Below are positions 27,301 through 60,626 of a DNA stretch of 64,000 nucleotides, in pieces (the first letter of the stretch is position 1; each line of letters begins with the position of its first letter). The notes below the pieces were generated by a model. It was given only the letters and a program-made list of their open reading frames with translations. It was not told the origin of the DNA and ran no database searches. The stretch covers positions 8,546 through 72,545 of the forward strand of contig CALRFU010000004.1 in NCBI GenBank assembly GCA_943356775.1. The letters run 5' to 3'. This stretch comes from Candidatus Nomurabacteria bacterium. GTDB taxonomy: Bacteria; Patescibacteriota; Minisyncoccia; Phycocordibacterales; UBA2100. The translations under genes were made by a program, and so were the position numbers.

Positions 27301-27369
27301 GCCGATGCGGAAAGCACCCCCGCGAAGAAGAGGCGTGGTCTTCTCGATGATTTCTATGAAATCCGTTAG
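24349..27369 (+). CDS. uvrD: UvrD/PcrA-family DNA helicase interrupted by an in-frame intein (TTG start)
   Basis: Motif I reads AGAGAGKTKT. Motif III GDLDQ|CIYTWRQA is split by a 368-aa insertion. The C-terminal helicase domains are intact. Confidence 0.85.
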   Translation: MQVKYLEGLNTAQKEAVLHVDGPLLIVAGAGAGKTKTIVHRIAHLIEENIPASSILAVTFTNKAAGEMRDRVRSLLEGKRGGLPLVATFHSLGVRLLREFHEAAGIPRGFSIWDRDDSLRAVKAELKRLDTDEWTPRQILGAISREKGGGKTLAEYRERASSRREQAVAQLWERYEQALKEEDGLDFDDLLVRTLSLVRESPQILSLLQNRWRYIIVDEYQDTSSVQYELMKLLSGERANMCVVGDLDQCLVAGTEITMADGSKKPIEFVRKGDSILSNYGGGRMRAARVTRSRSRFFSDDLVALTFKSGKRLVSTPKHMHFAGYKLGIVPQTYFTYLMHKRQVGWRMGVSQVYTKGQRAPMVGFQQRCNHEHADKVWIIGTHTSVNEARILEYTLSLEYRIPTLPFVARKGISKNGYVHDQQSIFSIFKYFDTETSARALLKARDLSYEYPHHRAQATTGGRRNIIITLCGSERKSTAMHRISLAASDPMDKQALESIGLRVRPAKRGSQNWRFETAYKDYGVLREIVRKIQAVLPHAEVVETARLGGNKKRPKDGNSLPYLPAASIMPGMAMFDGKSNHAIVEKVERIPTKNIRVYDLDIEGTHNFIANDIITHNCIYTWRQAEIENLLSFERVFPNVKVVRLEQNYRSTRTIIAAANAVIEKNTNRIPKTLFSENETGDPITMHGALDERYEAWFVAEQAAALIDKGVPAHEIAVLYRENSQSRVLEEALLHAGLPYRVLGTRFFERKEVKDVLSYLRAAVNPKGKGDLMRIVGVPPRGIGKVTLEKMFAGQPLGAAGSKVAAFRETLEKIRHAVNTLPTSEAVRFCIEASGIQKMYGGKTEEDAEHLGNVRELANLAAKYESDEPPAGIERLLEEAALQSEQDELTINQGKSGISLMTVHAAKGLEFDAVFVVGLEQGLFPSIRNDDSRDPEEERRLFYVALTRARKHLFLSYAYERTKYGTRESALPSEFLSDIDVRLLADAESTPAKKRRGLLDDFYEIR
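25096..26199 (+). mobile_element. Intein of 368 aa in UvrD motif III
   Basis: The N-terminal splice block is CLVAGTEITMADGS. Block B is TPKHMHF, block F is VYDLDIEGTHNF, and block G is NDIITHN followed by the +1 Cys. No clear LAGLIDADG or HNH motif was recognised in the central region. Confidence 0.8.
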
Positions 27370-28150: not shown

Positions 28151-28191
28151 TCGCCGCACGCCCCACCCGTTGGATGCCGTATACTATCCGT

Positions 28192-28506
28192 ATGCGGATT
28201 GCGTCTTTTATTTCCGGACTGCTCCTCCTTGCCTCACCTGCGTTTGCCTTCGCCTTTCCTTTCGGCGGACAAGCCGGTATCGTTATCCCTTGTTACAATC
28301 AGGCCATTTACGCGAACTTAGGTCCTCCGCGCGGTGGTCCGTACGTATGGACGCCATCGACAAAGACATACCAATTCGGCCCTCCAACTCATGCGGGGCA
28401 ATGGCTCCTCGGCCTTGCGAGCGCACCCTACTACTGCATCGTTTCAAACCAGCCCGTCATCGTCTGGCCGGGCACATACATTACGATGATGGGCTCGAGT
28501 CAGTAA
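28192..28506 (+). CDS. Small secreted protein with a signal peptide; first gene of the type IV secretion-like array
   Basis: The N-terminus is MRIASFISGLLLLASPAFAFA. Confidence 0.4.
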   Translation: MRIASFISGLLLLASPAFAFAFPFGGQAGIVIPCYNQAIYANLGPPRGGPYVWTPSTKTYQFGPPTHAGQWLLGLASAPYYCIVSNQPVIVWPGTYITMMGSSQ

Positions 28507-28507
28507 T

Positions 28508-29395
28508 ATGGAATGGGCCCGCACACATCCGTATACCGCCGCACTGTGCGCAGCGGGAATTCTCGTTCTCATGGGAGTATTCATCGTGGCGAGCCGGGCT
28601 GCACAACCGGCAGGGACACGCGCGACCACATGGGGAGGAGAGGCCGCACCCCTTTTGAATCCGACCTCGAACAATAATCCTCAAGCCACACCGGGCGGCA
28701 TGCCAACCACACAGCCGGTACAAGACGGTCCGCCGTATACCTATATTGCGCCGAGCTTCTCGACCTCTCCGTCTTCTGAAGAAGAGAGTTCGTATGACTT
28801 TGCCGCTTTCATAACGAAACTCACGAAGGAATCCTCCTCGAAAGGGCAACCCGAGGCGCCCGCCGACGATTCCCTCCTCAGCGCCTATGCATACATTCCT
28901 CGTGGACTCATGAGCACTACTTCCATCTCACGCCCACAGAGGACAGCGCTCCAACAAGAGCTCTATGACTACGGCAATGATATCGGTTCGACGATTGAAT
29001 CGCATGAACAGCAACACTCAAATACGATTCAAATACTAAAAGGGCAAGTCGAAGACCGCACAAACCCTGAAAAGGCGGCTGCCGTCGTGCGAATAGGACG
29101 CGACCTACAGGAGCTAGGGGAGAGTCTGGCCGCTATGGAGACGGTACCGTCAACCATCTCTTCCACGCACGATGCCCTCGCACGAAGCTACATCGAAATC
29201 GGAAAAAATCTTGCGCTCATACCAAGCGCCGAGCGCGATAGCGACTTTATTGCAGCTATTCAGACCTACAACTCATCCGCAGACACGTTTACAAGAAACT
29301 ACATCCAGCTTGTGTCACTCTTCGGGGCGCACGGCGTAACGTTCGCCGCAAGTGATTCGGGAAAAGTCTTCTCTTTTAGTCCGACCGGGTTTTAG
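28508..29395 (+). CDS. Hypothetical membrane-anchored protein with an N-terminal TM segment and an extracytoplasmic alpha-helical domain
   Basis: The gene follows the upstream gene's stop after one intervening base. The product has TM segment LCAAGILVLMGVFIV and shares its architecture with the next gene. Confidence 0.45.
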   Translation: MEWARTHPYTAALCAAGILVLMGVFIVASRAAQPAGTRATTWGGEAAPLLNPTSNNNPQATPGGMPTTQPVQDGPPYTYIAPSFSTSPSSEEESSYDFAAFITKLTKESSSKGQPEAPADDSLLSAYAYIPRGLMSTTSISRPQRTALQQELYDYGNDIGSTIESHEQQHSNTIQILKGQVEDRTNPEKAAAVVRIGRDLQELGESLAAMETVPSTISSTHDALARSYIEIGKNLALIPSAERDSDFIAAIQTYNSSADTFTRNYIQLVSLFGAHGVTFAASDSGKVFSFSPTGF

Positions 29396-29437
29396 AGAGC
29401 CTCTGCAAATACCCAAATCCACTAAACCCCTTCAGAC

Positions 29438-30328
29438 GTGAGCGCCTCGCTCTCTTCCGTGCGTTATACTAATCGTGTGGAAATAGAACGCGCGTACAAA
29501 AGCGGGCGTGTTTGTCCTACTTTCGTAGGCAGGCATTCTACCGTCTCTCTCACACAGCATGGTTTCTCTCATATCTTTATTACTGCAGCCGTATCTCTCG
29601 TCGTTCTCGTCGGCGTAGTGGGCTGGCAAATCAACAGTTTCGTGCGCGACCGCAGCGACGCGACATCGTACATTGCCACGTCCGATTCGCTCGACTCTGA
29701 CGCCGCGAACACAGACCCTTTAGCTGACAGCTCTCTCTTTGGTATAGATCCTGGCACCACACCAATTGGCTCTGCAGTGCTGGACAGTGTCGTAGAAAAA
29801 TACTTATCTCTGCAGTCACAAGGTCTTTACACACCCGAGGTAGGAGAGAAAGCTGCAGAAAAGATGGCGGAGGGCCTCACTGCTCCCACAGAGCATCGAA
29901 CCTACGCTGCCGCAGATATCCAGACGAGCGCCGATACATCCTACGCACGCATGATTACGTATCGAACCGACTTGCAACTCTCCCTCATGCCTCTCCTTAA
30001 AAATACCGAGCCTGAATATGAGGTTTTCGCATACTACGTAAGCACACGAGATAAAAAACACCTCGAGAAACTCAAGGCTGCCGCACAAAATTACCGTGCC
30101 GCAGCACAGGCGACCGCACACGTCGTCCCGCCGAAGGACGCGCTCTCTCAGCATGTTGGCATTCTGAACGCGCTCGAAGCATTCGCTGCAGCGCTCGATG
30201 CATTGGCCGTAAACGCAGAGGACCCATTCGCTTCCGTGGTCGTTCTCCGCGGATACAACCAAGCTGAGACCGGTGTCCTCACCTCGTTCGCATCTCTTGC
30301 TAAGTACTACCGAGAGAAACAATCATGA
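29438..30328 (+). CDS. Hypothetical membrane-anchored protein (GTG start) with architecture similar to 28508-29395
   Basis: The product has TM segment ITAAVSLVVLVGVVGW. The stop overlaps the next gene's ATG (ATGA). Confidence 0.4.
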   Translation: MSASLSSVRYTNRVEIERAYKSGRVCPTFVGRHSTVSLTQHGFSHIFITAAVSLVVLVGVVGWQINSFVRDRSDATSYIATSDSLDSDAANTDPLADSSLFGIDPGTTPIGSAVLDSVVEKYLSLQSQGLYTPEVGEKAAEKMAEGLTAPTEHRTYAAADIQTSADTSYARMITYRTDLQLSLMPLLKNTEPEYEVFAYYVSTRDKKHLEKLKAAAQNYRAAAQATAHVVPPKDALSQHVGILNALEAFAAALDALAVNAEDPFASVVVLRGYNQAETGVLTSFASLAKYYREKQS

Positions 30329-32487
30329 GTATGAAACGCTCCCTCTTTGCCATTCTACTGTTCAGTGCGCTCGGTATAGTACCGCTTGTTACTCTCGCTC
30401 AGACTGACATGACAGCACCGACCTCTCCCACGAATCTGCGCGCATCAGCCGTCTCCTCCTCTGCGATTCTTCTAACTTGGAACGCTTCTACGGATGCGAG
30501 CGGGGTACAGGGCTACAAAATATACCGAGCGACTGCTCCAAGTACGACCACCGTACAGGTCGCGACATCGACCACCCTCTCATTCCAAAATTCAGGTCTC
30601 GCCCCTGCGACAAATTACATCTATAGTGTCGCTGCGTACGATACGGCTGGCAATACATCCGCGAAGTCTACGCCCGCATCGACCGCAACGCAGGCGAGTA
30701 CAGGAACTTCGGGGGGAACGGGCTCGACTGGAACGGGGAGCACTGGGGGGACGGGGACAACCGGCACAGGGAGCACGGGTACTGGGAGCACGGGTACTGG
30801 GAGTACGGGTACTGGGAGCACGGGCGGCACAGGAACGGGGAGCGGAACGCCCCCCGCCAGTCTTGACCTTCAGCGACAAGGAATTTTCGATTGTAATCAA
30901 AACGGGGCATACGCAATGAGTGTCGGGGCACTCGGTGCGACGGGCGGCGTGTATGTACCGGTTGCGGACTCGACGGTTGAGCTAAATACCGGCACGCTTG
31001 TCTACAAAGAGTGCGTCTTGAGAGAGGTCGTAAACCGAGAGCGCGAAGCCGCGACTGCTGGTCTCGGAAGAACGGCGATAAGCGCAATCCAAACTGGTCG
31101 CAACGGCTCACCCCAGTATGTGGTAGACCAAGACATGGAGATCCTGCTTGGAGCGAATGACCCTGCCTTTCTTGCTTTCCTGCGAGATGATGCGCTATGG
31201 CAAAATGTGCACCCCGCCATTCGAAATCCCCTCAAGCGCGCTGCGGTACGAGCGTACGAAGCCAAGACTGGTGCTCCCGGAGCAATGATTGCTTGTCCCT
31301 ACAAGGGCGACCTTGAAGCGTTCCGAACCGGCAAAACCAGATTTTCAATAGCGACTTTCCTTGAGGCTACCGCTCCTCAGTGCGACCCGGTAATCGCAGC
31401 TGCTCTCCTCGAGGAGATTAGCAACGCGCGCATCGCGAAGTGCACCCAGTATATACGCGACCAATGGGACTGGGGAGGCGGGTACTACGCAAAGACAGAC
31501 GATCCAAACAACCCTTGCTCGGCGAAAATCCTGACCCCCGCCTCAACCATCCAGCAATCGTTCCAGACTATTATCGACAGCCCCGTGCGCCAGCTTGAAA
31601 GCGCCAACGACATCGGACAAATGATAAACGCCCTGTATGCAGGCTTGACGACGCAGATAATCTCGGACAACAAGGGTCTCGCTGGGCTCACCCAATCCAT
31701 CGCTGGTCAGCCGCGGTACATAGACAGAGTGGTGCAGGAGGCAGCTCAAGGACTCCGCAATGCCGCGACCAACGTTGCCATACAAAATCTCCAGGTCGCA
31801 CAGCGCATAGAGGCTCTGTACTTACAGACGGTAAATGCGATGGGGGCGGCACTCACGACGGCAATACAACAGTTGCGCAGCGCGGAGAAACAGTGTTGGG
31901 ACCTCATCGTCTACCAGAATGACGGAAAGCCCGAGCGGCATGTGTGTGCGGGTCCGCTTGCCGCCGACAAGACATGTACTTCATATGTGGGAGGGTGTAC
32001 GACTGACACTCAAACAGGTACGCAAACATGTCCCGCCGGCGCTGTTCTCCAGGTCTCCACCTCCACCGCATTTTCACAATCGGTTATCACACGAAGTATT
32101 CAACCGCTCGCAACCACAACCTTGGCGCGTATCGAATCGTCGCAAAACGCGCTTAATCTGATTGGTAGATTGATCGAGGGCGTCACGGGCTCTTCACTCG
32201 ACGCCCAGCGCCTTGCAATCGTGCAGCTCAATTCGCTCGTCGCTCAAAAATTGCTCCACATCCAGCCCGACCTCGACGGACCAAATGGCGTCATCAAACA
32301 ATTGGATAATATACAGACAGCAATACTGGGTAGCGAGGGGCTGGTCGTGACGACAATCAAGGCGTGGGCTGACTCAACAAATATCCCCCCAGGATGGTGC
32401 AACGTGAACAATCCGGCGGTCCTCGAGGCATGGAAAAAATGTTGGAATAAAAATAATCCAGACCGCTCCGCCTGCCCTACACCATGA
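30325..32487 (+). CDS. Large secreted protein with a fibronectin type III-like domain and a Gly/Thr low-complexity linker
   Basis: The product has a signal peptide and an FN3-like region NLRASAVSSSAILLTWNASTDASGVQGYKIYRA...YIYSVAAYDTAGN. The linker reads (GSTGT)n. Confidence 0.55.
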   Translation: MSMKRSLFAILLFSALGIVPLVTLAQTDMTAPTSPTNLRASAVSSSAILLTWNASTDASGVQGYKIYRATAPSTTTVQVATSTTLSFQNSGLAPATNYIYSVAAYDTAGNTSAKSTPASTATQASTGTSGGTGSTGTGSTGGTGTTGTGSTGTGSTGTGSTGTGSTGGTGTGSGTPPASLDLQRQGIFDCNQNGAYAMSVGALGATGGVYVPVADSTVELNTGTLVYKECVLREVVNREREAATAGLGRTAISAIQTGRNGSPQYVVDQDMEILLGANDPAFLAFLRDDALWQNVHPAIRNPLKRAAVRAYEAKTGAPGAMIACPYKGDLEAFRTGKTRFSIATFLEATAPQCDPVIAAALLEEISNARIAKCTQYIRDQWDWGGGYYAKTDDPNNPCSAKILTPASTIQQSFQTIIDSPVRQLESANDIGQMINALYAGLTTQIISDNKGLAGLTQSIAGQPRYIDRVVQEAAQGLRNAATNVAIQNLQVAQRIEALYLQTVNAMGAALTTAIQQLRSAEKQCWDLIVYQNDGKPERHVCAGPLAADKTCTSYVGGCTTDTQTGTQTCPAGAVLQVSTSTAFSQSVITRSIQPLATTTLARIESSQNALNLIGRLIEGVTGSSLDAQRLAIVQLNSLVAQKLLHIQPDLDGPNGVIKQLDNIQTAILGSEGLVVTTIKAWADSTNIPPGWCNVNNPAVLEAWKKCWNKNNPDRSACPTP
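30700..30850 (+). repeat. Tandem 15-bp repeat (actgggagcacgggt, about 4-5 copies) encoding GSTGT repeats, inside a wider Gly/Thr/Ser-rich linker
   Basis: The repeat is read directly from the sequence at about 30764-30825. Confidence 0.6.
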
Positions 32488-34964
32488 GTATGTCAACTCG
32501 AAATAACCACGTGCATATCCTAGTGTCTATCATCTTAGTAGGCATGCTGTTACCAGTCTTCGTTGAGGCAATGACAGCGGATGCGTATCTAAGCCTTGTC
32601 GCCACGCAGAGACAACAAAATAAGCAGCGCCCCCTGAACACGGCAGAAACAAACGCAACCGTGACCGCATGGAATTCACTCTCAGAAAATCAACGACTCT
32701 ATGTAGAAAATCGAATAGCGGCAATACAAGCAAACATTGCCCGATACGGCGGCAATCTTCCCATCGGAGCTGCCATAGGAGTGATTGGTAACGGATACGA
32801 TCAGTTGCCACCTAACGAACAGGGAATACTTACTAAAGATGCGAAGGAAGAGGCTGCAAACCCGCAAAAGAGATCGTCCGCATCATGGTGCTCTGGCATT
32901 GTGGACTGTCTAATGCTGATACCAAGTGCGATAGGAAAGGCTATTTTTACACTCCTTGGCGGATTTCTACTTGAACTAAGTAGGGTGATTCTCGGGATCG
33001 CGGGGCTTTTGTTCAATCTATTGATCGAGAAGACCATCATACAATTTGGCACCTTCTACGGGGATATGAAACCCGCGGTCGAGCAAGCCTGGACAGCGTT
33101 TCGCGATATCGCGAATATTCTCATTATTGGAATCTTTACGTTTATCGCAATCTCCATCATTCTCGGACTCAAAGAGTACGGTCAAAAGAAAATGATTGCG
33201 AACGTCCTCATCATCGCAGTGATGATAAATTTCAGTCTGCTGTTTGCAAAAATGATAATCGATGCGTCGAATTACACTGCCGCGCAGATATACACCGCCG
33301 CCGCTCTTGGGGGGACAGGAGGGACAACGGGCGGAACAGCAGGTGCTGCCTCGACACAAACGACCTACGGAATAGCCGACCAGTACATGAACCTGCTTGG
33401 AGTCGGATCGGTGGGTGGGTCCTTTAATGTTCTGTGGGATGTGCCCGGCGCTTGGGCCACCCTTAGTCACAGCATTTTTATGACGATGATTCTGCTGGGC
33501 GCCGCCTTGGTACTTTTTTATGGATGTTTTCTTCTCGCATCACGCATGATTATGCTCATATTCCTTATGGTAACCGCATCAATCGCATTCGCGAGTTATC
33601 TTATTCCTAAGTGGGCAGGAAGCTCTTACGGATGGAGCGCCTGGTGGAGCTCACTCCTCTGGTGCGCGGCGCTCGCACCGATACTCATGTTCTTTCTCTG
33701 GATGACACTCAACGTCTCGTACGCCCTCAAGGGGACTTCGAGCCCAAATTTAAGCGCCGCACTTTCGAACCCCTCGGTTTCGACCATCGGCTTTCTCCTC
33801 AATTACCTTCTTATCCTCGGTCTTCTCTTCGGCACATTCAAGATCTCGAGCATGGCGGCAAACAAGATCGGCGGATTTAGCTTCGCGCAAATGGCAACCG
33901 CGCTTCCGCTCACCATGGGTTCTCGATTCCTTGTAGGAGGCCTGGGGCGATTAGCTGTAGGAGCTCCTGCGTATTTTAAAGGGAAAAGTTTGACCAAGGA
34001 GGCTCGTGGTTTACGCAATGAGGCAGCGCAGGCTGAATTAGCAGCAAAGAGACACGAAAGTTTCGGGAATCTTGGATTGGCGGATCAGGCGCGAGCAGAG
34101 GCGAAGAGAAAGCGAGACGAGGCTGCCGGAAAGATACAGCGAGCCGGTCTTATGGGTACACTTGCCAGTAGTAAGTTTAACGTGATGGATACTGCGGGAG
34201 CTAAAGCCGTTATGGGCGCTGTTGGAGTAAAAGGTTTCGCAGCAGGGGCATCATCTAAAATGATGTTCGAAAAAGGTATCGCAGACCGAGTTGAAACACG
34301 GGCTAAGGCGGCAGAAAAAATGGCGGCAAAGATGGCCCCCTCGACAGAGCAAAACGACGATGCTGAGAACGAAGCGCGGCGTGTTGTTCGCGAACAGAGG
34401 CAGGTGGCACTGGCCCAGCTTGAAGCAACGAGAGATGCTACAAAGACAACTGAGCAGCTCGAACAGAAATTGACTACAGCAAATCAAGACGCTAAGACAG
34501 TTGAGGATACGGCTTCGAAGGAAAAGGCGCGTATCCAAACCGACCCAACGATAGGACAGCAACGGCGACAGGGGCTAATGAAGGCGGAAGACGATAAGAT
34601 CGAGAGAGCTGCCGCGACCGTACAGGCGGTACAAAACAGGATTAACTTCTTAGATAAGCCCGCAAAAGATCATGACGCGGAAACGGAGCGGCTCGCGAAA
34701 AAGGCAGGCGATGACATCGTTGGGGCTATGCGGGACAGCGCCATTGACATTGCCGAACGAATTGGAGAAAAACAAGGAGATATTTTTACGCGCGCATTTG
34801 GAACCCTCAATAGAGAAAATAAAGCTGTTGCCGACGAGACAAAAGATATGTACAAGAAAAAAGTAAAAACTGCGAGGTTCCGAGATGCAATAAAGTTGAC
34901 TCAAGATGAGGATGGAGGGGGTGCCGCACCAGCGGCCGCCGCGCCGACAACCCCCCATCCGTAG
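32484..34964 (+). CDS. VirB6/TrbL-like (PrgH-like) polytopic membrane protein with a long charged coiled-coil C-terminal tail
   Basis: The product has a signal/N-terminal domain, at least six TM helices, and a Lys/Glu/Ala-rich tail. It sits immediately upstream of the VirB3/VirB4 homologues. Confidence 0.5.
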   Translation: MSMSTRNNHVHILVSIILVGMLLPVFVEAMTADAYLSLVATQRQQNKQRPLNTAETNATVTAWNSLSENQRLYVENRIAAIQANIARYGGNLPIGAAIGVIGNGYDQLPPNEQGILTKDAKEEAANPQKRSSASWCSGIVDCLMLIPSAIGKAIFTLLGGFLLELSRVILGIAGLLFNLLIEKTIIQFGTFYGDMKPAVEQAWTAFRDIANILIIGIFTFIAISIILGLKEYGQKKMIANVLIIAVMINFSLLFAKMIIDASNYTAAQIYTAAALGGTGGTTGGTAGAASTQTTYGIADQYMNLLGVGSVGGSFNVLWDVPGAWATLSHSIFMTMILLGAALVLFYGCFLLASRMIMLIFLMVTASIAFASYLIPKWAGSSYGWSAWWSSLLWCAALAPILMFFLWMTLNVSYALKGTSSPNLSAALSNPSVSTIGFLLNYLLILGLLFGTFKISSMAANKIGGFSFAQMATALPLTMGSRFLVGGLGRLAVGAPAYFKGKSLTKEARGLRNEAAQAELAAKRHESFGNLGLADQARAEAKRKRDEAAGKIQRAGLMGTLASSKFNVMDTAGAKAVMGAVGVKGFAAGASSKMMFEKGIADRVETRAKAAEKMAAKMAPSTEQNDDAENEARRVVREQRQVALAQLEATRDATKTTEQLEQKLTTANQDAKTVEDTASKEKARIQTDPTIGQQRRQGLMKAEDDKIERAAATVQAVQNRINFLDKPAKDHDAETERLAKKAGDDIVGAMRDSAIDIAERIGEKQGDIFTRAFGTLNRENKAVADETKDMYKKKVKTARFRDAIKLTQDEDGGGAAPAAAAPTTPHP

Positions 34965-34969
34965 AATAT

Positions 34970-35542
34970 ATGGATGCAACAACCTCTCAAGATAAACTGA
35001 ATGAAAAACTCCAGAAGCGCTTTAAAGAGTTGCCGAAGGTCATACAGGATGCTGTTACCTCAGCTGAGGTTGAAAAACAACTCCGCACATTAGCGGACAC
35101 AAACAAACTGCATATCGACCAGTGGCAACTTCTTGAGAATGAAGTCATGCTTACGCTTTTTGGCTTCCAACCGGCAGAAGAGCTCGCCCATCATCTAAAA
35201 ACTGACCTTGATATCTCTACGGAGAAAGCCGAGCAACTTGCAGTTGAGATTTCTCGAATTGTTTTTGAACCTATCCGCGAAGAACTTGAACGCGAACTTG
35301 AGCATCCGGATGCAAAAGCCGCTGCGGTAAGCGACGTAGAGGGAGCACGCACACAAGCGCTCACTGCTGAAGCCGCCTCAATTGCCCCTGTCGTACCCGC
35401 AGTATTGCCGGCGACGCCACCCGCAGATGCACCCACAACAAAAATAGAACGTGCTCCGGTATCCGAATCGTACAAAGCGGGGGAGACGAGTGCGGCGCGC
35501 AAATCGGTTCACGATGATCCGTATCGTGAGATACCCGCGTGA
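34970..35542 (+). CDS. Hypothetical soluble acidic protein within the type IV secretion-like array
   Basis: The 190-aa product has no TM segment and no recognisable motif. Confidence 0.35.
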   Translation: MDATTSQDKLNEKLQKRFKELPKVIQDAVTSAEVEKQLRTLADTNKLHIDQWQLLENEVMLTLFGFQPAEELAHHLKTDLDISTEKAEQLAVEISRIVFEPIREELERELEHPDAKAAAVSDVEGARTQALTAEAASIAPVVPAVLPATPPADAPTTKIERAPVSESYKAGETSAARKSVHDDPYREIPA

Positions 35543-35583
35543 ATAACGCAGAGTTCGCTCCTCTGCACTGATATACTACAGTC

Positions 35584-36099
35584 ATGCAGTTCCAGGTTCC
35601 TCAATTCATCGAGGTCGAGGATAAAATATTCGGTCCGCTGACCTTCAAACAATTCATCTACGTAGGTGGCGGTCTCGGCGCGTCGTACATTCTCTGGCGC
35701 TTACTGCCTATCTACCTTGCAGGACCTCTGATTGCGGTCGTCGGCGGCACCGCCGCAGGGTTAGCTTTTTTTCAGATCAACGGCAGGCCATTTATTATCG
35801 GTCTCGAGAACGGGTTCTACTTTCTTATACGCAGTAAGCTCTACCTATGGAATAACGCGCGCAAGAAGGGTATTCCTGCCCCGGTCGCACGCGCGCTCGC
35901 AGAGAGCAGGGGTGATGTCTACGTACCCAAGCTTTCCGAAAGTAAGCTGCACGAGCTCTCCTGGAATCTCGATATCAAGGAACGCATCTCTGCGGGAGTC
36001 GCAAATGACGAAGAGCGGCACACAGTCCGGACGGCAGAAAATATCGTAACCCCCATCCGTACGCCACAACAGGCGATGTCATCGCTTTCTTCCCGTTAA
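35584..36099 (+). CDS. VirB3/TcpE/PrgI-like small two-TM membrane protein
   Basis: The product has two adjacent hydrophobic helices after a short N-terminus (FGPLTFKQFIYVGGGLGASYILWRLLPIYLAGPLIAVVGG). It lies directly upstream of VirB4. Confidence 0.4.
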   Translation: MQFQVPQFIEVEDKIFGPLTFKQFIYVGGGLGASYILWRLLPIYLAGPLIAVVGGTAAGLAFFQINGRPFIIGLENGFYFLIRSKLYLWNNARKKGIPAPVARALAESRGDVYVPKLSESKLHELSWNLDIKERISAGVANDEERHTVRTAENIVTPIRTPQQAMSSLSSR

Positions 36100-36105
36100 T
36101 ACCGT

Positions 36106-36768
36106 ATGCCTACTCAAGAAGACAAAGGGCCACGCGCGAGCGCAAAATCGACACAGGACTTCCTGCCGGTTTCTGAGGTGCGCGATGGCGTCATCGTACT
36201 CAAAGACGGCGGCTTGCGGGCGATACTCCTCGCATCCTCCCTCAACTTCGCCCTCAAGTCCGAAGACGAGCAGACTGCATTCATTATGCAGTTCCAAAAT
36301 TTCCTCAACTCGCTCGATTTTTCCGTGCAGATATTTGTGCAGTCGCGCATGCTCGATATCCGGCCCTATGTTGCCACCCTCGAAGTCGCCTACAAAGAAC
36401 AGCTCGACGACCTTATGCGAATCCAAATCCGCGAATACATCCAATTCGTAAAAAGCTTCACCGAAGCCGCAAACATCATGACCAAAAACTTCTTCCTCGC
36501 GGTTCCGTATTCACCTTCGGTTAACATCAAAAGGGGCGGCGTGCGCTCCATGCTTCCGTTCGGGAAAAAAGATGCGAACACGGAAGAAGCGAACCGCACA
36601 TTCGAAGAGCAGGTTTCCCAGCTCGAACAGCGCGTTTCAATTGTGCAACAAGGCCTCATCCGCACGGGAGTACGCACGGTGCAGCTCGGCACTGAAGAGG
36701 TGATAGAGCTTCTCTACAAGATGTTTAATCCCGGCGAGGAGGGCAAACCAATGCCACTGCAAAAATAA
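36106..36768 (+). CDS. VirB4/TraE/PrgJ-family conjugal ATPase, N-terminal domain. The ORF stops 1 nt before the ATPase ORF, which is in a different frame.
   Basis: LPVSEVRDGVIVLKDGGLRAILLASSLNFALKSEDEQ matches the conserved VirB4 N-terminus of Gram-positive T4SS ATPases. Confidence 0.6.
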   Translation: MPTQEDKGPRASAKSTQDFLPVSEVRDGVIVLKDGGLRAILLASSLNFALKSEDEQTAFIMQFQNFLNSLDFSVQIFVQSRMLDIRPYVATLEVAYKEQLDDLMRIQIREYIQFVKSFTEAANIMTKNFFLAVPYSPSVNIKRGGVRSMLPFGKKDANTEEANRTFEEQVSQLEQRVSIVQQGLIRTGVRTVQLGTEEVIELLYKMFNPGEEGKPMPLQK

Positions 36769-36769
36769 T

Positions 36770-38704
36770 ATGGCGCTTCTGGACTTATTCAAGAAAACCA
36801 AGCCCGAAGACGGGCCGAACATCCTCCCCGTCCTACCCGAGGAAATATACAAATCAGGCATTCTGGATTTGCAGGACGTCATCGCGCCGCATGCGCTGCG
36901 TATCAATTCCCGCGAGCTCGACTTGGGCGAGAAAATCGCGCGCACATTCTTCGTCATTTCATATCCACGTTTTTTGACGACGGGCTGGTTCGCACCTATC
37001 ATCAACATGGACAAGGTCATCGATATTTCCATCTTCATACACCCGATGGATACGAATGAGATGCTCCGCAAATTCCAAAAGAAGGTCGCCGAGGTGCAGA
37101 GTCAGATATCCACACGTGAGTCAAAGGGGATGGTGCGCGACCCGATGCTCGATACCGCGTATTCAGACCTCGAACAACTGCGCGATTCTCTCCAGCAAGC
37201 ACAAGAACGCATCTTCGAAGTAGGTCTCTATCTCACCATCTACGGTAGTACGCGCGAAGAGATAGACAAAGTCGAGACAGAAGTACGCTCCATTCTCGAA
37301 TCGCGTCTCGTCTACATCCGACCTGCGCTTTTCCAGCAAGAGCAAGGATTCCGAAGTGTGCTCCCGCTCGCGACTGACGAGATAAACGTCCATACCAAAC
37401 TCAATTCCGCTCCGCTGTCTTCCATATTCCCGTTCATTTCCTTCGACCTCACCTCAGACCGCGGCATTCTCTACGGCATCAACCGTCACAACTCGTCACT
37501 CATCCTTTTCGACCGGTTCAGCCTCGAAAACTACAACTCCGTGACCTTCGCGAAATCCGGCGCGGGAAAATCCTACACGACCAAGCTGGAAATACTCCGG
37601 AGTCTCATGTTCGACACGGAAGTTATCGTAATTGACCCTGAGCGCGAATACGAGTACCTCGCCGAGACGGTCGGCGGACGCTACTTCAACATCTCACTCT
37701 CGTCTGAGCACCACATCAATCCCTTCGACCTGGCCATTCCGAGAGAAGACGAGAACCCCGGCGATATTCTGCGCAACAACATCATCACGCTCGTCGGGCT
37801 CTTCCGCATCATGTTGGGCGGTCTTACACCAGAGGAAGATGCGGTCATTGACCGTGCTATCACAGAGACATACGCCCTGAAAGACATTTCTGCAGATGCA
37901 AATTTCGCCCTCGTCGAACCGCCTCTTCTCAGTGACTTCGAGCTCGTGCTCTCTGGCATGGAAGGGAGCGAGTCTTTGGTCGCGCGATTATCGAAATACA
38001 CAAAAGGCACGTGGTCGGGATTCATGAACCGCCCGACAAATGTCGACATGAACAAAAAACTCATCGTATTCTCCGTACGCGACATGGAAGACGATTTGAA
38101 GCCGGTCGCCATGTACATCATCACGCACCACATTTGGAATGCCGTGCGCAAAGAACTCCGCAAGCGGCTGCTTATCATCGACGAGGCGTGGTGGATGATG
38201 CGCTCAGAAGACACGGCGTCGTTCCTTTTCTCTATCGCAAAGCGCGGACGCAAATACTTCCTCGGCATCTCGACGATTACCCAAGACGTTTCCGACTTCT
38301 TAAACTCGCCCTACGGCATCCCCATGATTACTAACTCCTCGATCCAGATGCTCCTGCGTCAATCGCCCACATCAGTCGACCTTGTGCAACAGACGTTTAA
38401 ACTCTCCGACGAGGAAAAGTACCTGCTCCTCGAATCCGATGTGGGGGAGGGAATTTTCTTCGCGGGTCTCAAACACGTCGCTATCAAAGTCATCGCCTCA
38501 TATACCGAAGACCAGATAATTACTTCCGATCCTTCGCAGATTCTCGCTATCAAGAAAGCAAAACAAGACCTCGCCGCGGCGAATGAGGGAGGGCCCGGTA
38601 CCGCCGAGGTCGCGGCCGGCGCAGCACAGCAGGCTGAACGCGCGCAATCAGCATCAGTTAATTTCAACCCGTCCGAGGCTCCCGCGACGACACCCCAACA
38701 ATGA
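36770..38704 (+). CDS. VirB4/TraE/PrgJ-family conjugal ATPase, central and ATPase domains
   Basis: The Walker A motif is FAKSGAGKSYT and the Walker B-like motif is LLIIDEAWWMM. The conserved region ISYPRFLTTGWFAPIINMD is present. Confidence 0.8.
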   Translation: MALLDLFKKTKPEDGPNILPVLPEEIYKSGILDLQDVIAPHALRINSRELDLGEKIARTFFVISYPRFLTTGWFAPIINMDKVIDISIFIHPMDTNEMLRKFQKKVAEVQSQISTRESKGMVRDPMLDTAYSDLEQLRDSLQQAQERIFEVGLYLTIYGSTREEIDKVETEVRSILESRLVYIRPALFQQEQGFRSVLPLATDEINVHTKLNSAPLSSIFPFISFDLTSDRGILYGINRHNSSLILFDRFSLENYNSVTFAKSGAGKSYTTKLEILRSLMFDTEVIVIDPEREYEYLAETVGGRYFNISLSSEHHINPFDLAIPREDENPGDILRNNIITLVGLFRIMLGGLTPEEDAVIDRAITETYALKDISADANFALVEPPLLSDFELVLSGMEGSESLVARLSKYTKGTWSGFMNRPTNVDMNKKLIVFSVRDMEDDLKPVAMYIITHHIWNAVRKELRKRLLIIDEAWWMMRSEDTASFLFSIAKRGRKYFLGISTITQDVSDFLNSPYGIPMITNSSIQMLLRQSPTSVDLVQQTFKLSDEEKYLLLESDVGEGIFFAGLKHVAIKVIASYTEDQIITSDPSQILAIKKAKQDLAAANEGGPGTAEVAAGAAQQAERAQSASVNFNPSEAPATTPQQ

Positions 38705-38752
38705 ACGTAAGCATCCCAAAGAGGCTGTCTCTCGCGATATACTGAGAGTGTT

Positions 38753-39811
38753 ATGGCGGCTCGCACTCAATTACTGTTCGTCGCCCTCGTCATATGCGCA
38801 TTCTCTGCGTTTACCTCTCCGGCACATGCGCAATTCAGTCTGACGGGCATGGGGAGCGCGCTCTCTATTTCATTTTCTCCCGCAACTCCGTCTCCCGGCG
38901 ACACCGTGACTGTGTCCGTACAAAGCTCTCTCGTTGACATCCAAGACAGTGACATCCTCTGGCAGGCCAACGGGAAGAACGTCGCGCAAGGGAAGGGCGT
39001 CGACTCTGCGAGGGTTATAGCCGGCGCACTCGGCGCCGAAACACGGATTGTAGTCACCGTCGTCACGTCAGACGGCACAAGCGCTTCGACTGAAGCAACC
39101 ATAAACCCGACCGAGCTCGACCTCCTTGTCGACTCTGATTCGTATACACCGCCCTTTTATCGCGGATGGCCGCGTCCGTCAGCGGGTACCAACCTTCGTC
39201 TCCAGGCGTTTCCACGTTTTAAACGGGGGAACGTGACAGTGTCCGCGTCCGAGCTTATATATACATGGCGGCGCAACGGAGAAGTCCTCGGAAGTATTTC
39301 AGGGCGCGGGAAGACATCGGCGGTCGTCCCCGTCGAACACATCTTCGGCACCGACACAATCTCGGTCGAGGCCCGTAGCGCAGACAGCAAAATGTCACAC
39401 GTTTCGTCTATCTCTGTCTCCGCGACCGAACCTACGCTCGCACTCTATGAAGAGCATCCGCTGTACGGAGTTCTGTATCACCGGGCATTCTCCACGTCGG
39501 CATTCATCTCGGGAGTGGAGGCGACATTCGCGGCTGTACCTTTTTTTGCGCAAGCACGGAGCGTATATGACCCCGCCCTTCGTTTCGATTGGCGCGTCAA
39601 CTCCGCGGAAATTCCGGCAAATCTCAAGAATCCAAGCGCCCTCACCATCAACGCGGAGAATTCAAGCGGAGTAGCATTCATCGAACTCCAGGTCACACAC
39701 GCAACAAACTTTTATCTCGATGCAAAAAATACCTGGAATATGAGTTTTTCATCCGGTGCCGATTCCGGAGCATTCGGACAGTTCAATCCGTTCAATAACG
39801 CAACTCAGTAA
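38753..39811 (+). CDS. Hypothetical secreted beta-rich protein with a signal peptide
   Basis: The N-terminus reads LLFVALVICAFSAFTSPAHA. No motif was recognised. Confidence 0.45.
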   Translation: MAARTQLLFVALVICAFSAFTSPAHAQFSLTGMGSALSISFSPATPSPGDTVTVSVQSSLVDIQDSDILWQANGKNVAQGKGVDSARVIAGALGAETRIVVTVVTSDGTSASTEATINPTELDLLVDSDSYTPPFYRGWPRPSAGTNLRLQAFPRFKRGNVTVSASELIYTWRRNGEVLGSISGRGKTSAVVPVEHIFGTDTISVEARSADSKMSHVSSISVSATEPTLALYEEHPLYGVLYHRAFSTSAFISGVEATFAAVPFFAQARSVYDPALRFDWRVNSAEIPANLKNPSALTINAENSSGVAFIELQVTHATNFYLDAKNTWNMSFSSGADSGAFGQFNPFNNATQ

Positions 39812-39815
39812 ACCT

Positions 39816-41063
39816 ATGAAAATGAAAACTGTCGTCGAATATGTGCTGGCCGTGGTTGTTGTCCTCATACTCGGAAGCCTTGCCGGGTGGTACTTCTTCC
39901 TCCGCACTCAAACCGACACCACCATCGCCGAGAGTGTCGCCCGCGGGTTCGGTCTTGGCGCGCCGGAAGGGAATACAAACGGTAGCGTCTCGAGCGCATC
40001 ACAGGAGGCGGCGACCGACGCGTCGCCCGCACAATCGGCACAGCGTCCCGCCCAGCTTTGGAGTGTGGAACCAAAACCGACATCGGGACACACGTTCATC
40101 GGGAGCGGAAAAAATCTCCGGCTGCGCTACGTAGAGCGCGCGAGCGGGTACGTACTGGAAGCCGACCCCGAGACAGGACAAATTCTCCGCCTCACCAATA
40201 CGCTCATGCCGAAAATTTATGAGGCTTTGCTCAGTGAGAACGGACACGTGCTTGAACGCTCACTCGATACGGCCGGGAACATAACAACGTTCGTCGGAAC
40301 TATAGCGACAAGCACAAGCTCCGCATCTTCATCGGCCAAAACCCTTACCGGGACGTACCTTGCAAAGAATATTTCAAGCGTAAGCATGCACCCGGTCTCA
40401 GGGGCACTCTTTTATGTTGTGGGCGGTCAGGGCGGTAGCGCCGTTGTAAGTGCCGAGTGGAACGGCGAGAAACAGAAAACGCTTCTTGAATCAGCAATCA
40501 TAAGCTGGAAACCCGTCACCTTGGCAGACGGTCGCACCATACTTGTGCAGGCCGCCGCCGATGGAGTACCCGGTTATAGCTATGAAGTGAGACAAGGCGG
40601 GGTCCTGAACGCCATACTCGGGCCTGTCCCCGGTCTCGTGGTACGCGCGCGACCTTCGTCTTCAGCAGGCACCCCAAATGCCCTTTTGTGGAGTCAGTCA
40701 ATCGGCGGAACTCTCAGCGTATTCGCCCGTGTCGACCAAAACTCGACAGCGGTGCAAATACCCGTGAGGACTGTCGCAGATAAATGCGTATGGAAATCCG
40801 GAGAAGGGTTCGTCGCGTATTGCGGCGTGCCTCAGGGTTCGACCGGTCAAAACTTCCTGGACAATTGGTACCGGGGTGCGACGCACTCATCCGATGCACT
40901 GTGGCGCATTGATGCGAGCGCAGGCACTGCAGAGATACTCTACACTCCTCCCTCTAACACACCGGTTGATATTGAAAATATACTGATAGACAAAGCGGGG
41001 CAGTACATTTCTTTTACTAACGCCGCGGATAAGTCGCTCTGGCTCTTCCGGCTCACTAAATAA
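39816..41063 (+). CDS. Hypothetical membrane-anchored extracytoplasmic protein
   Basis: The product has an N-terminal TM segment (VVEYVLAVVVVLILGSLAGWYFF). The ATG lies 5 nt after the upstream stop. Confidence 0.45.
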   Translation: MKMKTVVEYVLAVVVVLILGSLAGWYFFLRTQTDTTIAESVARGFGLGAPEGNTNGSVSSASQEAATDASPAQSAQRPAQLWSVEPKPTSGHTFIGSGKNLRLRYVERASGYVLEADPETGQILRLTNTLMPKIYEALLSENGHVLERSLDTAGNITTFVGTIATSTSSASSSAKTLTGTYLAKNISSVSMHPVSGALFYVVGGQGGSAVVSAEWNGEKQKTLLESAIISWKPVTLADGRTILVQAAADGVPGYSYEVRQGGVLNAILGPVPGLVVRARPSSSAGTPNALLWSQSIGGTLSVFARVDQNSTAVQIPVRTVADKCVWKSGEGFVAYCGVPQGSTGQNFLDNWYRGATHSSDALWRIDASAGTAEILYTPPSNTPVDIENILIDKAGQYISFTNAADKSLWLFRLTK

Positions 41064-41065
41064 AT

Positions 41066-41596
41066 ATGGCCGCACTCATTCAGTACCGTGTATACGCGCT
41101 GTGCGCCCTCAGCGCTCTCGCAATCACCTGTATCCTTACCCCGTACATCACACACGCGGCGGATTTCGTCCCGCTCGCGCAGACCCCGGGAGGCTCGAAG
41201 CTTGGACAGCTCTACAGCTCCGGTGATTTCTCTAACTTTATAAACGGGCTGTTCAAATTTGCTATCGCTCTCGGTGCTATCGGTGCGGTGCTTCGCCTCG
41301 CGTACGCAGGCTATCTCTACATGGGGCAGTCAGATATGTGGAGCCAAAAAGGAGCAGCCAAAGAAATCATCAAAGACGTGACCCTCGGACTCCTCCTGCT
41401 CTTGAGCATTTACCTCATTCTCTTCCAAATCAATCCCGATATTTTGACACTCAAAGCGTTGCGCAATATCAAAGAGATACGGCAGACAGGCCCCGCGGCG
41501 CCATCGACATCATCAGGCGGCGGCATGCCCGCAGGACTAGAGCCATCCGGCTTACCTAGCAATCCTCTCGACTCGACGTTCCTCGGAGCGCCTTGA
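41066..41596 (+). CDS. VirB2/TrbC-like pilin candidate with a signal peptide and two hydrophobic helices
   Basis: The signal peptide is followed by the helices FINGLFKFAIALGAIGAVLRLAYAGYLYM and VTLGLLLLLSIYLILFQI, separated by a short charged loop. The C-terminus is Pro/Ser/Gly-rich. Confidence 0.45.
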   Translation: MAALIQYRVYALCALSALAITCILTPYITHAADFVPLAQTPGGSKLGQLYSSGDFSNFINGLFKFAIALGAIGAVLRLAYAGYLYMGQSDMWSQKGAAKEIIKDVTLGLLLLLSIYLILFQINPDILTLKALRNIKEIRQTGPAAPSTSSGGGMPAGLEPSGLPSNPLDSTFLGAP

Positions 41597-41597
41597 G

Positions 41598-42071
41598 TTA
41601 ATCGGTGGAATACTTAATGACGACGCGGCGGCTTCTTCCTTCTCCCTGTGACTCTGTTTTTACATTCGGGGCGTCCTGCAGTGTCGTGTGCACAATGAGT
41701 CGCTCGTAGGCACTCATAGGGGAGAGTTCCACATCGTATTGAAATGACCGCGCCCGTTCCGCCATCATTAAAGCTTTCGTCTGCAGGTCTTTTATCTGTT
41801 TCGTACGGTACTCATTGACGTCGACAAGAAACATCGGCGTACGCTCGGCAATCGCTCCCTCAACCGGGGTCGGCAGGCGATTCTCGTAAATTTTCTTCAC
41901 CAGAAAATCAATGGCATGAAGGGTGTCCCCATGCGCGCCGATAAGGGTGTGTGTGTCGTCGGTGCGGATTGAAAATATTTCCTGGCCCGCTACGGAGCTC
42001 TGTTCGATACTCGAGTAGGGGATACTCGCTGCGGTGAGCAATTCTTTGAGGATAGCGGAGACGGATTCCAT
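41598..42071 (-). CDS. jag: Jag/KhpB-like RNA-binding protein with an R3H domain
   Basis: The product ends with LSPMSAYERLIVHTTLQDAPNVKTESQGEGRSRRVVIK. The gene sits downstream of yidC. Confidence 0.7.
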   Translation of the reverse strand: MESVSAILKELLTAASIPYSSIEQSSVAGQEIFSIRTDDTHTLIGAHGDTLHAIDFLVKKIYENRLPTPVEGAIAERTPMFLVDVNEYRTKQIKDLQTKALMMAERARSFQYDVELSPMSAYERLIVHTTLQDAPNVKTESQGEGRSRRVVIKYSTD

Positions 42072-42122
42072 GGAGGGCACTATACCCCATGACATACAGA
42101 CACTCAACCCGCCCCCTCTGTT

Positions 42123-42860
42123 TTACAGTCCTTTCCCGAACCGTCTACCCGCCGCGTACTCCTGAAGTATCATTAAAATGTTGCCGGTTACCCAATAGAG
42201 AGGTGCCGCCGCGGGGATGGTGTAGGCGATAACGCCGATAATGGCGGGGAGCATATAGCGCGCCTGCAAATCAAAACTCTTGGCCATGTCGCCGGAAAGA
42301 GAGGCCTCAACGGGAGTCGCATCAAGCACTTTCTGACGCGAACCCATCGAGAGGCGCGTGTAGATAAATTGTGTGAGAGCCGCAAGGACGGCGAGAACTA
42401 TGCTCCGCTGCGACATATCAAGCACACCGAGAAATTCCATGTTGACCGATGCCGGTACCTGTACGAACGAGTACAGGAGCGACGCGTCGACCTTCGGGAA
42501 TCCTCCCGCGTAAAAGACCCAGTAGAGTCCGATAAGGACGGGGAATTGTATGAGGACAAGTCCGATACTCGCAAAGGGATGCACTCCGCGCTCCTTGTAG
42601 AGCGCAAATATCGCCCTGCCCTGCTCTTCGCGGTTATCTTTGTGTTTCGCCTTCAACAATTCCACCTCCGGGGCGATTTCCTTCATAGCCATTTGCGCTT
42701 TGATTGCGCGGCTTGAAAGCGGATAAATAATGATACGTACCACAATCGTGAGTGCGATAATGGCGAGACCTATATCGTGCGAAGGAATGATTCCCACGAA
42801 GAACGCCACCCCATTGTAGAGCGGGTCGTAAATACCCGCGTGAAAGAGATTCGATATCAT
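42123..42860 (-). CDS. yidC: Membrane protein insertase YidC, short Gram-positive-type form
   Basis: The product contains PLSSRAIKAQMAMKEIAPEVELLKAKHKDNREEQGRAIFALYKERGVHPFAS. Confidence 0.85.
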   Translation of the reverse strand: MISNLFHAGIYDPLYNGVAFFVGIIPSHDIGLAIIALTIVVRIIIYPLSSRAIKAQMAMKEIAPEVELLKAKHKDNREEQGRAIFALYKERGVHPFASIGLVLIQFPVLIGLYWVFYAGGFPKVDASLLYSFVQVPASVNMEFLGVLDMSQRSIVLAVLAALTQFIYTRLSMGSRQKVLDATPVEASLSGDMAKSFDLQARYMLPAIIGVIAYTIPAAAPLYWVTGNILMILQEYAAGRRFGKGL

Positions 42861-43210
42861 GATTGGAGTATTCTATCCCGCGCATCAATAGTTCTCAACA
42901 GCTTCTGAATATCGCTCGTCACCTCAGCCCGGGACGCTTCACGCGCTTCTCGTTTGGCGTAGAAGATAAAAGCCGCTGACTGTGTCCTTCCCGCAAGGAG
43001 TGGACGGAGGCTTTCTCGGCAATGACGTTCAATTCGATTGCGATCAACCGAGCGTGGAGATACTTTTTTTGAAACCACACACGCTGCCCGCGGCCCACCC
43101 AAAGAGGGAAGCGGCGTCACCGTTACAGAGAAAAAATCCCCGTGAATGCGCCGGGCAGGGCGGGGGAGGCGGATAAATTCGGCACGTGAGAGCCGGTATT
43201 TTTTTGGCAT
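42857..43210 (-). CDS. rnpA: RNase P protein component
   Basis: The product reads MPKKYRLSRAEFIRLP...RNRIERHCRE. The gene lies between rpmH and yidC. Confidence 0.8.
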   Translation of the reverse strand: MPKKYRLSRAEFIRLPRPARRIHGDFFSVTVTPLPSLGGPRAACVVSKKVSPRSVDRNRIERHCRESLRPLLAGRTQSAAFIFYAKREAREASRAEVTSDIQKLLRTIDARDRILQS

Positions 43211-43226
43211 GATGAGGCGGGACAGC

Positions 43227-43367
43227 CTACACCGTAAGCTTCGCGCGGCCTTTACGGCGGCGGCGGACCAAGACGTTCTTGCCCGATGTGCTCGCTGAGC
43301 GCGCGCGGAAACCGTGCGTGCGGACACGCTTACGCTTCTTTGGCTGCCAATTTCGTTTTGTCGACAT
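43227..43367 (-). CDS. rpmH: 50S ribosomal protein L34
   Basis: The reverse-strand translation is [46 protein letters not shown]. This ORF is below the size cutoff of the supplied ORF track. Confidence 0.85.
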
Positions 43368-43458
43368 GCCGCCCACTATACCCGTATTCCTAATTAATTC
43401 AACCTTTGCGACCTCACAGGATAAAAATCACCCCCCGATCAATCTACAATCAAAACAA

Positions 43459-43578
43459 GCGCTTGTGTGGCGTTGCCGAACCTCGCGCAGCGGATAAAAG
43501 GACCGCCAACACATACAGCAGTGGTGATACACGGCACGATCGAGACAAACTTCAGGTTCGGCAACGCCACACAAGCGC
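43459..43578. repeat. Perfect 25-bp inverted-repeat pair with a 70-bp spacer, in the rpmH-dnaA intergenic region
   Basis: The arms gcgcttgtgtggcgttgccgaacct (43459-43483) and aggttcggcaacgccacacaagcgc (43554-43578) are exact reverse complements. A DnaA-box-like TATCCACA lies at 43610-43618. Confidence 0.6.
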
Positions 43579-43700
43579 GCAAATCCACTCTCCCCACACT
43601 ATCCACACCTTATAAACAGTGGCATGACCGAACTTGAAACTTCCCCAGAGAAGCGTCCCGCGTATAATGTAGAACTTGGTTGCGCATGACTACTACTTCT

Positions 43701-45050: not shown

Positions 45051-45284
45051 TCACCCTGTTAATAACTCCACGAACAACCACTGCTCAGAACTCGTACAAC
45101 CTATCACTTATCCACTCCGAAAAAATATGAAATTACTTACTCACAACTTATCCGAACTTCCGGTGAAAGTTCTCAACAGTGAACTTCACCGAAAATACAT
45201 AATCAATTCCTCGATTAGAATGATTTCTCCCCAGTATCCACAGTACTAATAGTAGTAATAGTATTTATATATAATTATCTAGGT
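45051..45284. promoter_or_regulatory. Candidate oriC core with DnaA-box-like motifs and an AT-rich unwinding element
   Basis: The region contains ttatccact, cttatccgaac and agtatccacag, followed by the AT-rich stretch taatagtagtaatagtatttatatataattatc immediately upstream of dnaN. Confidence 0.5.
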
Positions 45285-49370: not shown

Positions 49371-49497
49371 GGGTTGAGTATAGCCCAAAGAAAAACCACC
49401 TGCGTTGCGGATGCTTTTCGCTAGTGGCATGATTCCGGTAGGCCTGTACACGGTCTCAGATGTAACCCTAAACGCGCTGCGGCGCAGGGAGGATACG

Positions 49498-51870: not shown

Positions 51871-51887
51871 GGTAGTATAGTAAAACA

Positions 51888-60611: not shown

Positions 60612-60626
60612 GTTATACTGTTTTGC

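Follow-up and report, generated by a model that had tools for sequence, protein, structure and literature searches.

In this study, we analyzed a 64-kb stretch of DNA (hereafter the window, whose coordinates are used throughout) from a Kaiserbacteria-like member of the Paceibacteria (Patescibacteria). Its block of twelve genes at 28192-41596 very probably represents the chromosomal type IV secretion system (T4SS) of nearly all Patescibacteria, a machine adjacent to the replication origin (oriC) that derives from monoderm conjugation machinery of the mating-pair formation class FATA (MPF-FATA) and lacks both a relaxase and a coupling protein in its vicinity. Its genes specify a translocon of the cytoplasmic membrane, comprising a VirB6-fold channel protein, a PrgI/VirB3 hairpin, a VirB4 ATPase and a separate TrsD, and throughout the class the block occupies a fixed place between ksgA and jag-yidC-rnpA-rpmH-dnaA. 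Because these components, the missing relaxase and the gene neighborhood have been published (PMC12102498, PMC10633639), the locus is already known and is a correct rediscovery of the published Patescibacteria system. The novelty implied by an initial annotation of this DNA does not hold, as the system, its missing relaxase and its dnaA-proximal site have been reported phylum-wide (PMC10633639, PMC12102498, PMC12857230). Our analysis adds fold-level support for VirB6, a paralogous pair of bitopic proteins, a helical secreted family at the VirB5 position, putative leaderless-type promoters, and probable Ig-like and propeller-like proteins conserved after virB4.

Relatives of VirB4 were sought in one genome per species, and synteny counts refer to the best 80 of the 578 loci found, labeled Kaiserbacteria, Nomurabacteria, Campbellbacteria, Taylorbacteria, Adlerbacteria, Paceibacterota and others; family-match and conserved-column tests of the VirB6-like protein, the pilin and p190 used 31 orthologues. 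VirB4, the signature motor of T4SSs, matches P-loop_TraG with an E value of 8.3e-24, and Walker A (GAGKS) and Walker B (LLIIDEAW) motifs are readable in its translation, in agreement with the initial annotation. Its best matches are exclusively Patescibacteria proteins at 74-100% identity (VirB4/TraC of Candidatus Kaiserbacteria, Paceibacterota and Parcubacteria), while the closest plasmid VirB4s belong to the monoderm CD1110 family and share 27-36% identity. Judged by best-match identity, this protein is consistent with the Patescibacteria clade nested in MPF-FATA. The VirB3-like protein with two transmembrane segments predicted earlier was also confirmed and belongs to the VirB3/PrgI family; it matches PF12666 (E 1.7e-9, 38.5 bits against a gathering cutoff of 27) and carries a hydrophobic hairpin at residues 36-63.

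The gene between those for PrgI and VirB4 had been left unassigned in the first reading. On its profile matches, its 220-residue product is of TrsD type, homologous to the N-terminal domain of VirB4 but encoded as a free-standing protein. It matches VirB4_plasma (4.7e-9), TIGR00929 VirB4_CagE (7e-7, profile positions 2-184) and NF041427, the TrsD family itself (E 1.6e-5, over 13-200 of 201 positions). Its orthologues, detected in 78 of the 80 loci, share 48-86% identity, and direct BLASTP comparison with the N-terminus of the window VirB4 gave a marginal similarity (E 0.085). The VirB6-like protein has a polytopic helical fold like that of TrwI/VirB6, and three of its 31 orthologues match the VirB6/TrbL profile PF04610 (best 7.7e-5); PDB sequences gave no match to VirB6, and no profile match to PrgH of pCF10 was found. 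For the pilin, all 31 orthologues match PF18895 (best 5.9e-10) and six match TrbC/VirB2 (PF04956), the residues G82, Y85 and G108 are invariant, and the topology is that of a VirB2-like pilin. PrgI, TrsD, VirB6 and this pilin are all encoded within 5 kb of virB4, the repertoire typical of Patescibacteria.

The twelve genes lie tightly packed on the plus strand between ksgA and jag-yidC-rnpA-rpmH-dnaA-dnaN, and every open reading frame (ORF) is intact. The packed, co-directional arrangement described in the initial annotation was recovered in full, with junctions mostly of -4 to +6 nt, as was a G+C content (0.51-0.57) similar to that of the flanking genes. The order common to the 80 loci is (uvrD) ksgA ... 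VirB6-like, (p190), PrgI, TrsD, VirB4, p352, p435/pilin, (jag), yidC, (rnpA), dnaA, dnaN; besides TrsD, we detected p352 in 79 of these loci, PrgI in 75, p435 in 71, DnaA in 62 and p190 in 45. The location near dnaA, dnaN, rnpA, rpmH and ksgA that characterizes Paceibacteria systems was thus found both here and in related genomes, so the core-chromosome site directly upstream of jag-yidC-rnpA-rpmH-dnaA, proposed earlier, is a conserved one.

Pfam scans covered every ORF of 150 residues or more in the 64-kb window and revealed no relaxase, no VirD4/TraG coupling protein and no phage-type integrase. The approximately 8 kb beyond its left end and 4 kb beyond its right end, judged from precomputed Pfam matches, contain only housekeeping genes, without relaxase or VirD4. 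The reported absence of both genes therefore applies to the window and to the sequence just past its ends. Att-like direct repeats around the block were not found, only chance-size matches and one internal coding repeat. The earlier claim that integrase and repeat boundaries are missing accordingly stands for att repeats and phage-type integrases and needs qualification for one XerC/D-type recombinase, the only recombinase present, 18 kb away. The features of a conjugative element, namely a relaxase with a coupling protein, integrase or att boundaries and a variable position, were not observed. The same order in the same context in 80 species genomes indicates a vertically inherited machine of the bacterium itself and not an ordinary integrative conjugative element. 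Component homology, missing mobility genes and synteny agree on this point, as the initial annotation had proposed.

These features correspond to what has been described for the phylum. In a survey of 3,035 Patescibacteria genomes, Quinonero-Coronel et al. (2025, Microb Genom, PMC12102498) reported that Patescibacteria VirB4s form a monophyletic clade nested in MPF-FATA, that TrsD, PrgI/VirB3, VirB6 and VirB2-like pilins are encoded near virB4, that relaxases are near-absent and VirB8 is rare, and that virB4 of Paceibacteria lies close to dnaA, dnaN, rnpA, ksgA and rpmH. The window locus shares with these systems the VirB4 with TrsD, PrgI/VirB3, VirB6 and a VirB2-like pilin nearby, the lack of a relaxase, a nearby coupling protein and a recognizable VirB8, and the chromosomal position among origin genes in a monoderm ultrasmall bacterium; we found no essential difference. 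In a 2025 review (PMC12857230), the systems of Patescibacteria figure as a new branch of the T4SS superfamily that is by now established.

Using transposon-insertion sequencing, Wang et al. (2023, Cell, PMC10633639) demonstrated that epibiotic growth requires the T4SS of Saccharibacteria together with its pilins but does not require comEC; that cluster has no recognizable relaxase or coupling proteins. The T4SS of Southlakia epibionticum ML1 (SEML1_0006-0019, PMC10633639) resembles the window locus in its Gram-positive-like subunits and pilins and in having no recognizable relaxase or coupling protein among its clustered genes, and its gene numbers put it close to the genome start, as here near oriC. 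In contrast, the Saccharibacteria locus encodes six divergent pilins and has peptidase/lysozyme genes right after virB4 (PMC12102498, PMC12857230), whereas the window locus has a single pilin, and the proteins encoded after its virB4 are probably Ig-like and propeller-like.

Compared with monoderm conjugative T4SSs (MPF-FATA), represented by the modules of pCF10 (prgD-pcfC) and the Clostridium perfringens plasmid pSXP-169_2, the window locus has the same order of polytopic protein, PrgI and VirB4, as noted in the initial annotation, a CD1110-type VirB4 and no outer-membrane core complex. Both modules differ from the window locus in encoding MobC, a relaxase, VirD4 and an SLT/CHAP hydrolase around PrgI-VirB4, together with a VirB8-like PrgL and an LPXTG adhesin, and in lacking a pilin. 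In the window locus, TrsD has a gene of its own, as it does in pGO1-type systems. Comparison of the window family profiles by hhalign with pCF10 PrgD, E, F, G, H, L, M and PcfA, or with the polytopic protein of the C. perfringens plasmid, gave no similarity. Compared with the R388 Trw and Agrobacterium VirB systems (MPF-T), the window locus has no VirB7/9/10 outer-membrane complex, VirB11, VirB8 or VirD4.

Several observations weigh against assigning the block to this system. The three NCBIfam scores of the TrsD-like protein fall under the curated whole-protein cutoffs, and VirB4 was placed in the Patescibacteria clade by best-match identity only. The window VirB6-like protein does not match PF04610, so the initial VirB6 assignment holds at the level of fold and of a few orthologues; likewise, the window pilin matches PF18895 under the cutoff (E 3.1e-4, 21.2 bits against 26.6), and the earlier pilin assignment is borne out by topology and orthologues. 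No locus protein has a sequence or profile match to VirB8/PrgL (NTF2-like), as the first reading had stated, and the 12-gene block contains no lytic transglycosylase, CHAP or peptidase gene. The negative result for VirD4 and relaxase covers about 76 kb of the genome, and VirD4-like genes lie far from virB4 in most Patescibacteria (PMC12102498). Furthermore, the system is known here from its genes, and the function, substrate and direction of transport given below are proposals. The available experiments were made with Saccharimonadia (PMC10633639) and with a single further lineage in culture, rather than with Paceibacteria such as this one.

By analogy with established T4SSs, PrgI would dock VirB4 onto the VirB6 channel, and VirB4 would extract pilin from the membrane and drive its polymerization into a VirB2 pilus or tube that crosses the monoderm wall. 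The wall-spanning and distal parts, provided elsewhere by VirB8, VirB1, VirB5 or adhesins, may here be formed by the exported Ig-like, propeller-like and helical proteins, and the tube would contact the host cell that carries the episymbiont. Such a machine would move macromolecules between host and symbiont rather than conjugate DNA, in our preferred reading by taking up host material (nucleic acids), and its oriC-proximal position could provide high gene dosage and expression. A 2026 preprint describes tubular structures, possibly T4SS pili, that reach into the host, and host RNA that is taken up (bioRxiv 10.64898/2026.06.21.733656). With modest confidence, we consider uptake of host macromolecules more likely than either effector export or DNA competence, because relaxase and coupling protein are missing, comEC is dispensable in S. 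epibionticum and RNA uptake has been reported.

Export in the opposite direction is the most credible alternative, although we consider it clearly the less probable one. The machine would then be a contact-dependent translocator that injects effectors or toxins into the host bacterium and so subverts or permeabilizes it, as pathogen T4SSs do. Some T4SSs without a coupling protein do export proteins (Ptl and Brucella VirB, cited in PMC12102498), and Wang et al. suggested protein export as one option (PMC10633639). However, we identified no effector, chaperone or coupling protein, and the secreted proteins of the locus carry Sec-type leaders, so they need no T4SS to leave the cell.

A competence-like T4SS of the kind represented by ComB of Helicobacter and Ced of archaea, which would bring in free DNA or that of the host as a source of nucleotides and for recombination, seems unlikely to us. 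These two are T4SS-derived importers without relaxases, import of DNA or other macromolecules has been proposed for Patescibacteria (PMC12102498), and Patescibacteria lack nucleotide biosynthesis (PMC10633639; bioRxiv 10.64898/2026.06.21.733656). Nevertheless, transformation of S. epibionticum needs type IV pili as well as comEC, a gene without which the bacterium still grows, whereas the T4SS is essential (PMC10633639); moreover, the block contains no DNA-processing or DNA-binding gene, and the window also encodes a PilB-type ATPase for type IV pili. Finally, a selfish DNA-transfer machine, either a conjugative element integrated near oriC or its decayed remnant with relaxase and coupling protein lost or encoded elsewhere, is extremely improbable despite the homology of the VirB6-like protein, PrgI, TrsD and VirB4 to monoderm conjugation genes and the tyrosine recombinase 18 kb upstream, and we rejected it on the fixed synteny, which spans several candidate orders, and on the mobility genes missing from the window and its flanks, to which are added the 74-94% identity of VirB4 among the 80 loci, and therefore strong purifying selection, the even G+C content, the intact ORFs and the XerC/D architecture of a recombinase that sits among housekeeping genes.

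A large part of bacterial diversity belongs to the Patescibacteria, whose members live attached to other microbes, and the chromosomal T4SS is among the few machines whose essentiality for this attached lifestyle has been demonstrated. The window provides a clean and complete Paceibacteria example, whose value is that of a reference locus listing conserved, unnamed neighbors rather than that of a discovery. The residual interest lies in the accessory families without recognizable relatives, which most deserve experimental or structural study.

Seven lineage-specific envelope or cytoplasmic proteins accompany the core components (Table 1). Scans against Pfam, NCBIfam and PHROGs, together with profile searches against PDB sequences (run for eight families), gave no usable family relative for them, so at the family level the earlier view of them as undescribed is mostly right. 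One of them is a 720-residue secreted protein, whose gene overlaps the start of the VirB6-like gene, the position held by VirB5 in diderm systems. It has an fn3 match (1.5e-10), and its 545-residue helical domain was modeled confidently (predicted local distance difference test score, pLDDT, 80.9) and has no significant structural neighbor. It belongs to a large family (2208 representative clusters at E <= 1e-3), and many orthologues are without the FN3 domain and linker. The (GTGS)n-like linker that joins the FN3 and helical domains is encoded by imperfect tandem repeats of 15 nt (30712-30843). No similarity to VirB5/TrwJ was detectable.

The bitopic proteins p295 and p296 are related through their C-terminal domains (hhalign probability 97%, E 5.8e-11). 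A transmembrane segment occupies residues 10-28 of p295, both proteins look helical, and designed coiled coils were their only matches; p295 has no Pfam, NCBIfam or PDB family match and p296 likewise no family match. For p352, the weak matches were all of immunoglobulin (Ig) type (BiPBP_C 0.0088, Hoc 0.0019), and the protein is probably built of repeated Ig-like domains. Weak matches of p435 to TolB propellers (E 0.0035) make a beta-propeller ectodomain probable, and orthologue consensus points to ATG 39816 as its likely start. The small acidic protein p190 ends in a D-P-Y-R-E motif that is nearly invariant across the 31 orthologues and could be a docking or recognition tail.

One proposal for the envelope proteins would make the 720-residue helical family the functional counterpart of VirB5, a pilus-tip or stalk protein contacting or inserting into the host envelope, and the Ig-like, propeller-like and paired bitopic proteins a wall-spanning scaffold that replaces VirB8 and VirB1. 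We regard this as quite doubtful; if true, Paceibacteria would have a penetrating tube of VirB2/VirB5 type on a monoderm chassis.

The first gene of the block encodes s104, which has no family match. In all 19 relatives where an orthologue was detected, it lies between ksgA and p295 on the minus strand, and it is on the plus strand here. The difference looks like a single-gene inversion in the analyzed genome, and no convincing inverted repeats flanking s104 were found.

Table 1. Coordinates of the genes discussed, in window order
Feature	Coordinates	Strand	Basis or remarks
Peptidoglycan hydrolase, LysM x2 + Peptidase_M23	22874-24067	-	Peptidase_M23 6.8e-32, LysM 4.6e-25
UvrD/PcrA-type helicase split by intein	24349-27369		Intein_splicing and Hom_end-associated Hint matches
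s104, small secreted protein, 104 aa, first gene of block	28192-28506	+	ORF, signal-peptide-like hydrophobic N-terminus
p295, bitopic: N-terminal transmembrane helix, low-complexity linker, C-terminal helical domain	28508-29395	+	
p296, bitopic, p295 paralogue	29477-30328 (mechanical ORF from 29438)	+	
720-aa secreted protein: signal peptide, FN3, (GTGS)n linker, 545-aa all-helical cysteine-bearing domain	30325-32487	+	
Extended VirB6-like polytopic membrane protein, 826 aa, long charged C-terminal tail	32484-34964	+	
p190, small acidic cytoplasmic protein	34970-35542	+	No transmembrane segment; no family or PDB match
PrgI/VirB3 homologue	35584-36099	+	PF12666 and membrane hairpin
TrsD-like free-standing homologue of VirB4 N-terminal domain, 220 aa	36106-36768	+	NCBIfam matches
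VirB4 ATPase	36770-38704	+	P-loop_TraG, AAA_10, DUF87, TraC_F_IV matches
p352, secreted, signal-peptide-like N-terminus	38753-39811	+	Weak Ig-type matches; directly 3' of virB4 in 79/80 loci
p435, bitopic, N-terminal transmembrane helix and ectodomain	39816-41063 (mechanical ORF from 39756)	+	71/80 loci
VirB2-like T4SS pilin	41066-41596	+	PF18895, leader and two hydrophobic helices
jag(-), yidC(-), rnpA(-), rpmH(-), dnaA(+), dnaN(+)	41598-46391	as given per gene	R3H, 60KD_IMP, Ribonuclease_P, Bac_DnaA, DNA_pol3_beta matches
PilB/GspE-type ATPase	55412-57109	-	T2SSE 3e-113 and MshEN domain

The initial annotation had seen no VirB1 hydrolase, which is correct for the block itself; a LysM-M23 peptidoglycan hydrolase is encoded upstream of uvrD-ksgA on the minus strand, about 4 kb away. 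Its position is kept in three of three far-reaching related loci and in two others, and VirB1-type matches with M23/LysM domains are associated with virB4 in Paceibacteria (PMC12102498). This enzyme is a possible functional stand-in for VirB1 or a wall-remodeling partner, or it may simply be a housekeeping or cell-division enzyme.

The spacing of the genes and a recurrent hexamer suggest how the block is transcribed. Start and stop codons overlap by 4 nt (ATGA) at the junctions of p296 with the FN3 gene and of the FN3 gene with the VirB6-like gene; the other close junctions measure +1 nt (s104/p295 and TrsD/VirB4), +2 (p435/pilin), +4 (p352/p435, with ATG 39816), +5 (VirB6-like/p190) and +6 (PrgI/TrsD). 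Four wider gaps, of 41-48 nt, precede s104 (28192), p296 (29438/29477), PrgI (35584) and p352 (38753). TATACT followed after 5-10 nt by ATG occurs ten times in the window against 0.94 expected, a count that none of 100 shuffles reached, and nearly always at ORF starts. The sites in the block are 28180-28194, 29465-29479, 35572-35586 and 38738-38755, with the hexamer 6-9 nt 5' of the starts at 28192 (6 nt), 35584 and 38753 and of an in-frame GTG at 29477. This GTG is the likely true start of p296 rather than 29438, because TATACT at 29465-29470 is followed 6 nt on by the in-frame codon, an arrangement found in 15 of 21 orthologues. Similar -10-like boxes precede PrgI in 44 of 75 orthologues and p352 in 30 of 77, and are rare before the remaining genes.

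The pattern suggests that TATACT boxes may act as -10 boxes driving leaderless mRNAs, and that the block may comprise approximately four transcription units (28192 onward, 29477-35542, 35584-38704 and 38753-41596). A sigma-70 scan found promoters not in excess over shuffles, with an excess of terminator-like sequences in the same scan. Elsewhere in the window, sites include 11695-11710, 49368-49382 and 51865-51879 on the minus strand and 60614-60629, and they suggest shorter true starts for ruvC (49370) and yebC (51867).

Among the neighboring genes, rpmH was recognized by an L34 N-terminus readable on the minus strand. A PilB/GspE-type ATPase gene about 14 kb past the block indicates a type IV pilus system. 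On the 5' side, ksgA adjoins the block and is preceded by uvrD, whose N- and C-terminal helicase domains are separated by the intein matches. About 0.1 kb past the right end of the window, as located on a near-identical contig (13338-14195), there is a free-standing gene for a LAGLIDADG homing endonuclease, next after a glutamate dehydrogenase gene.

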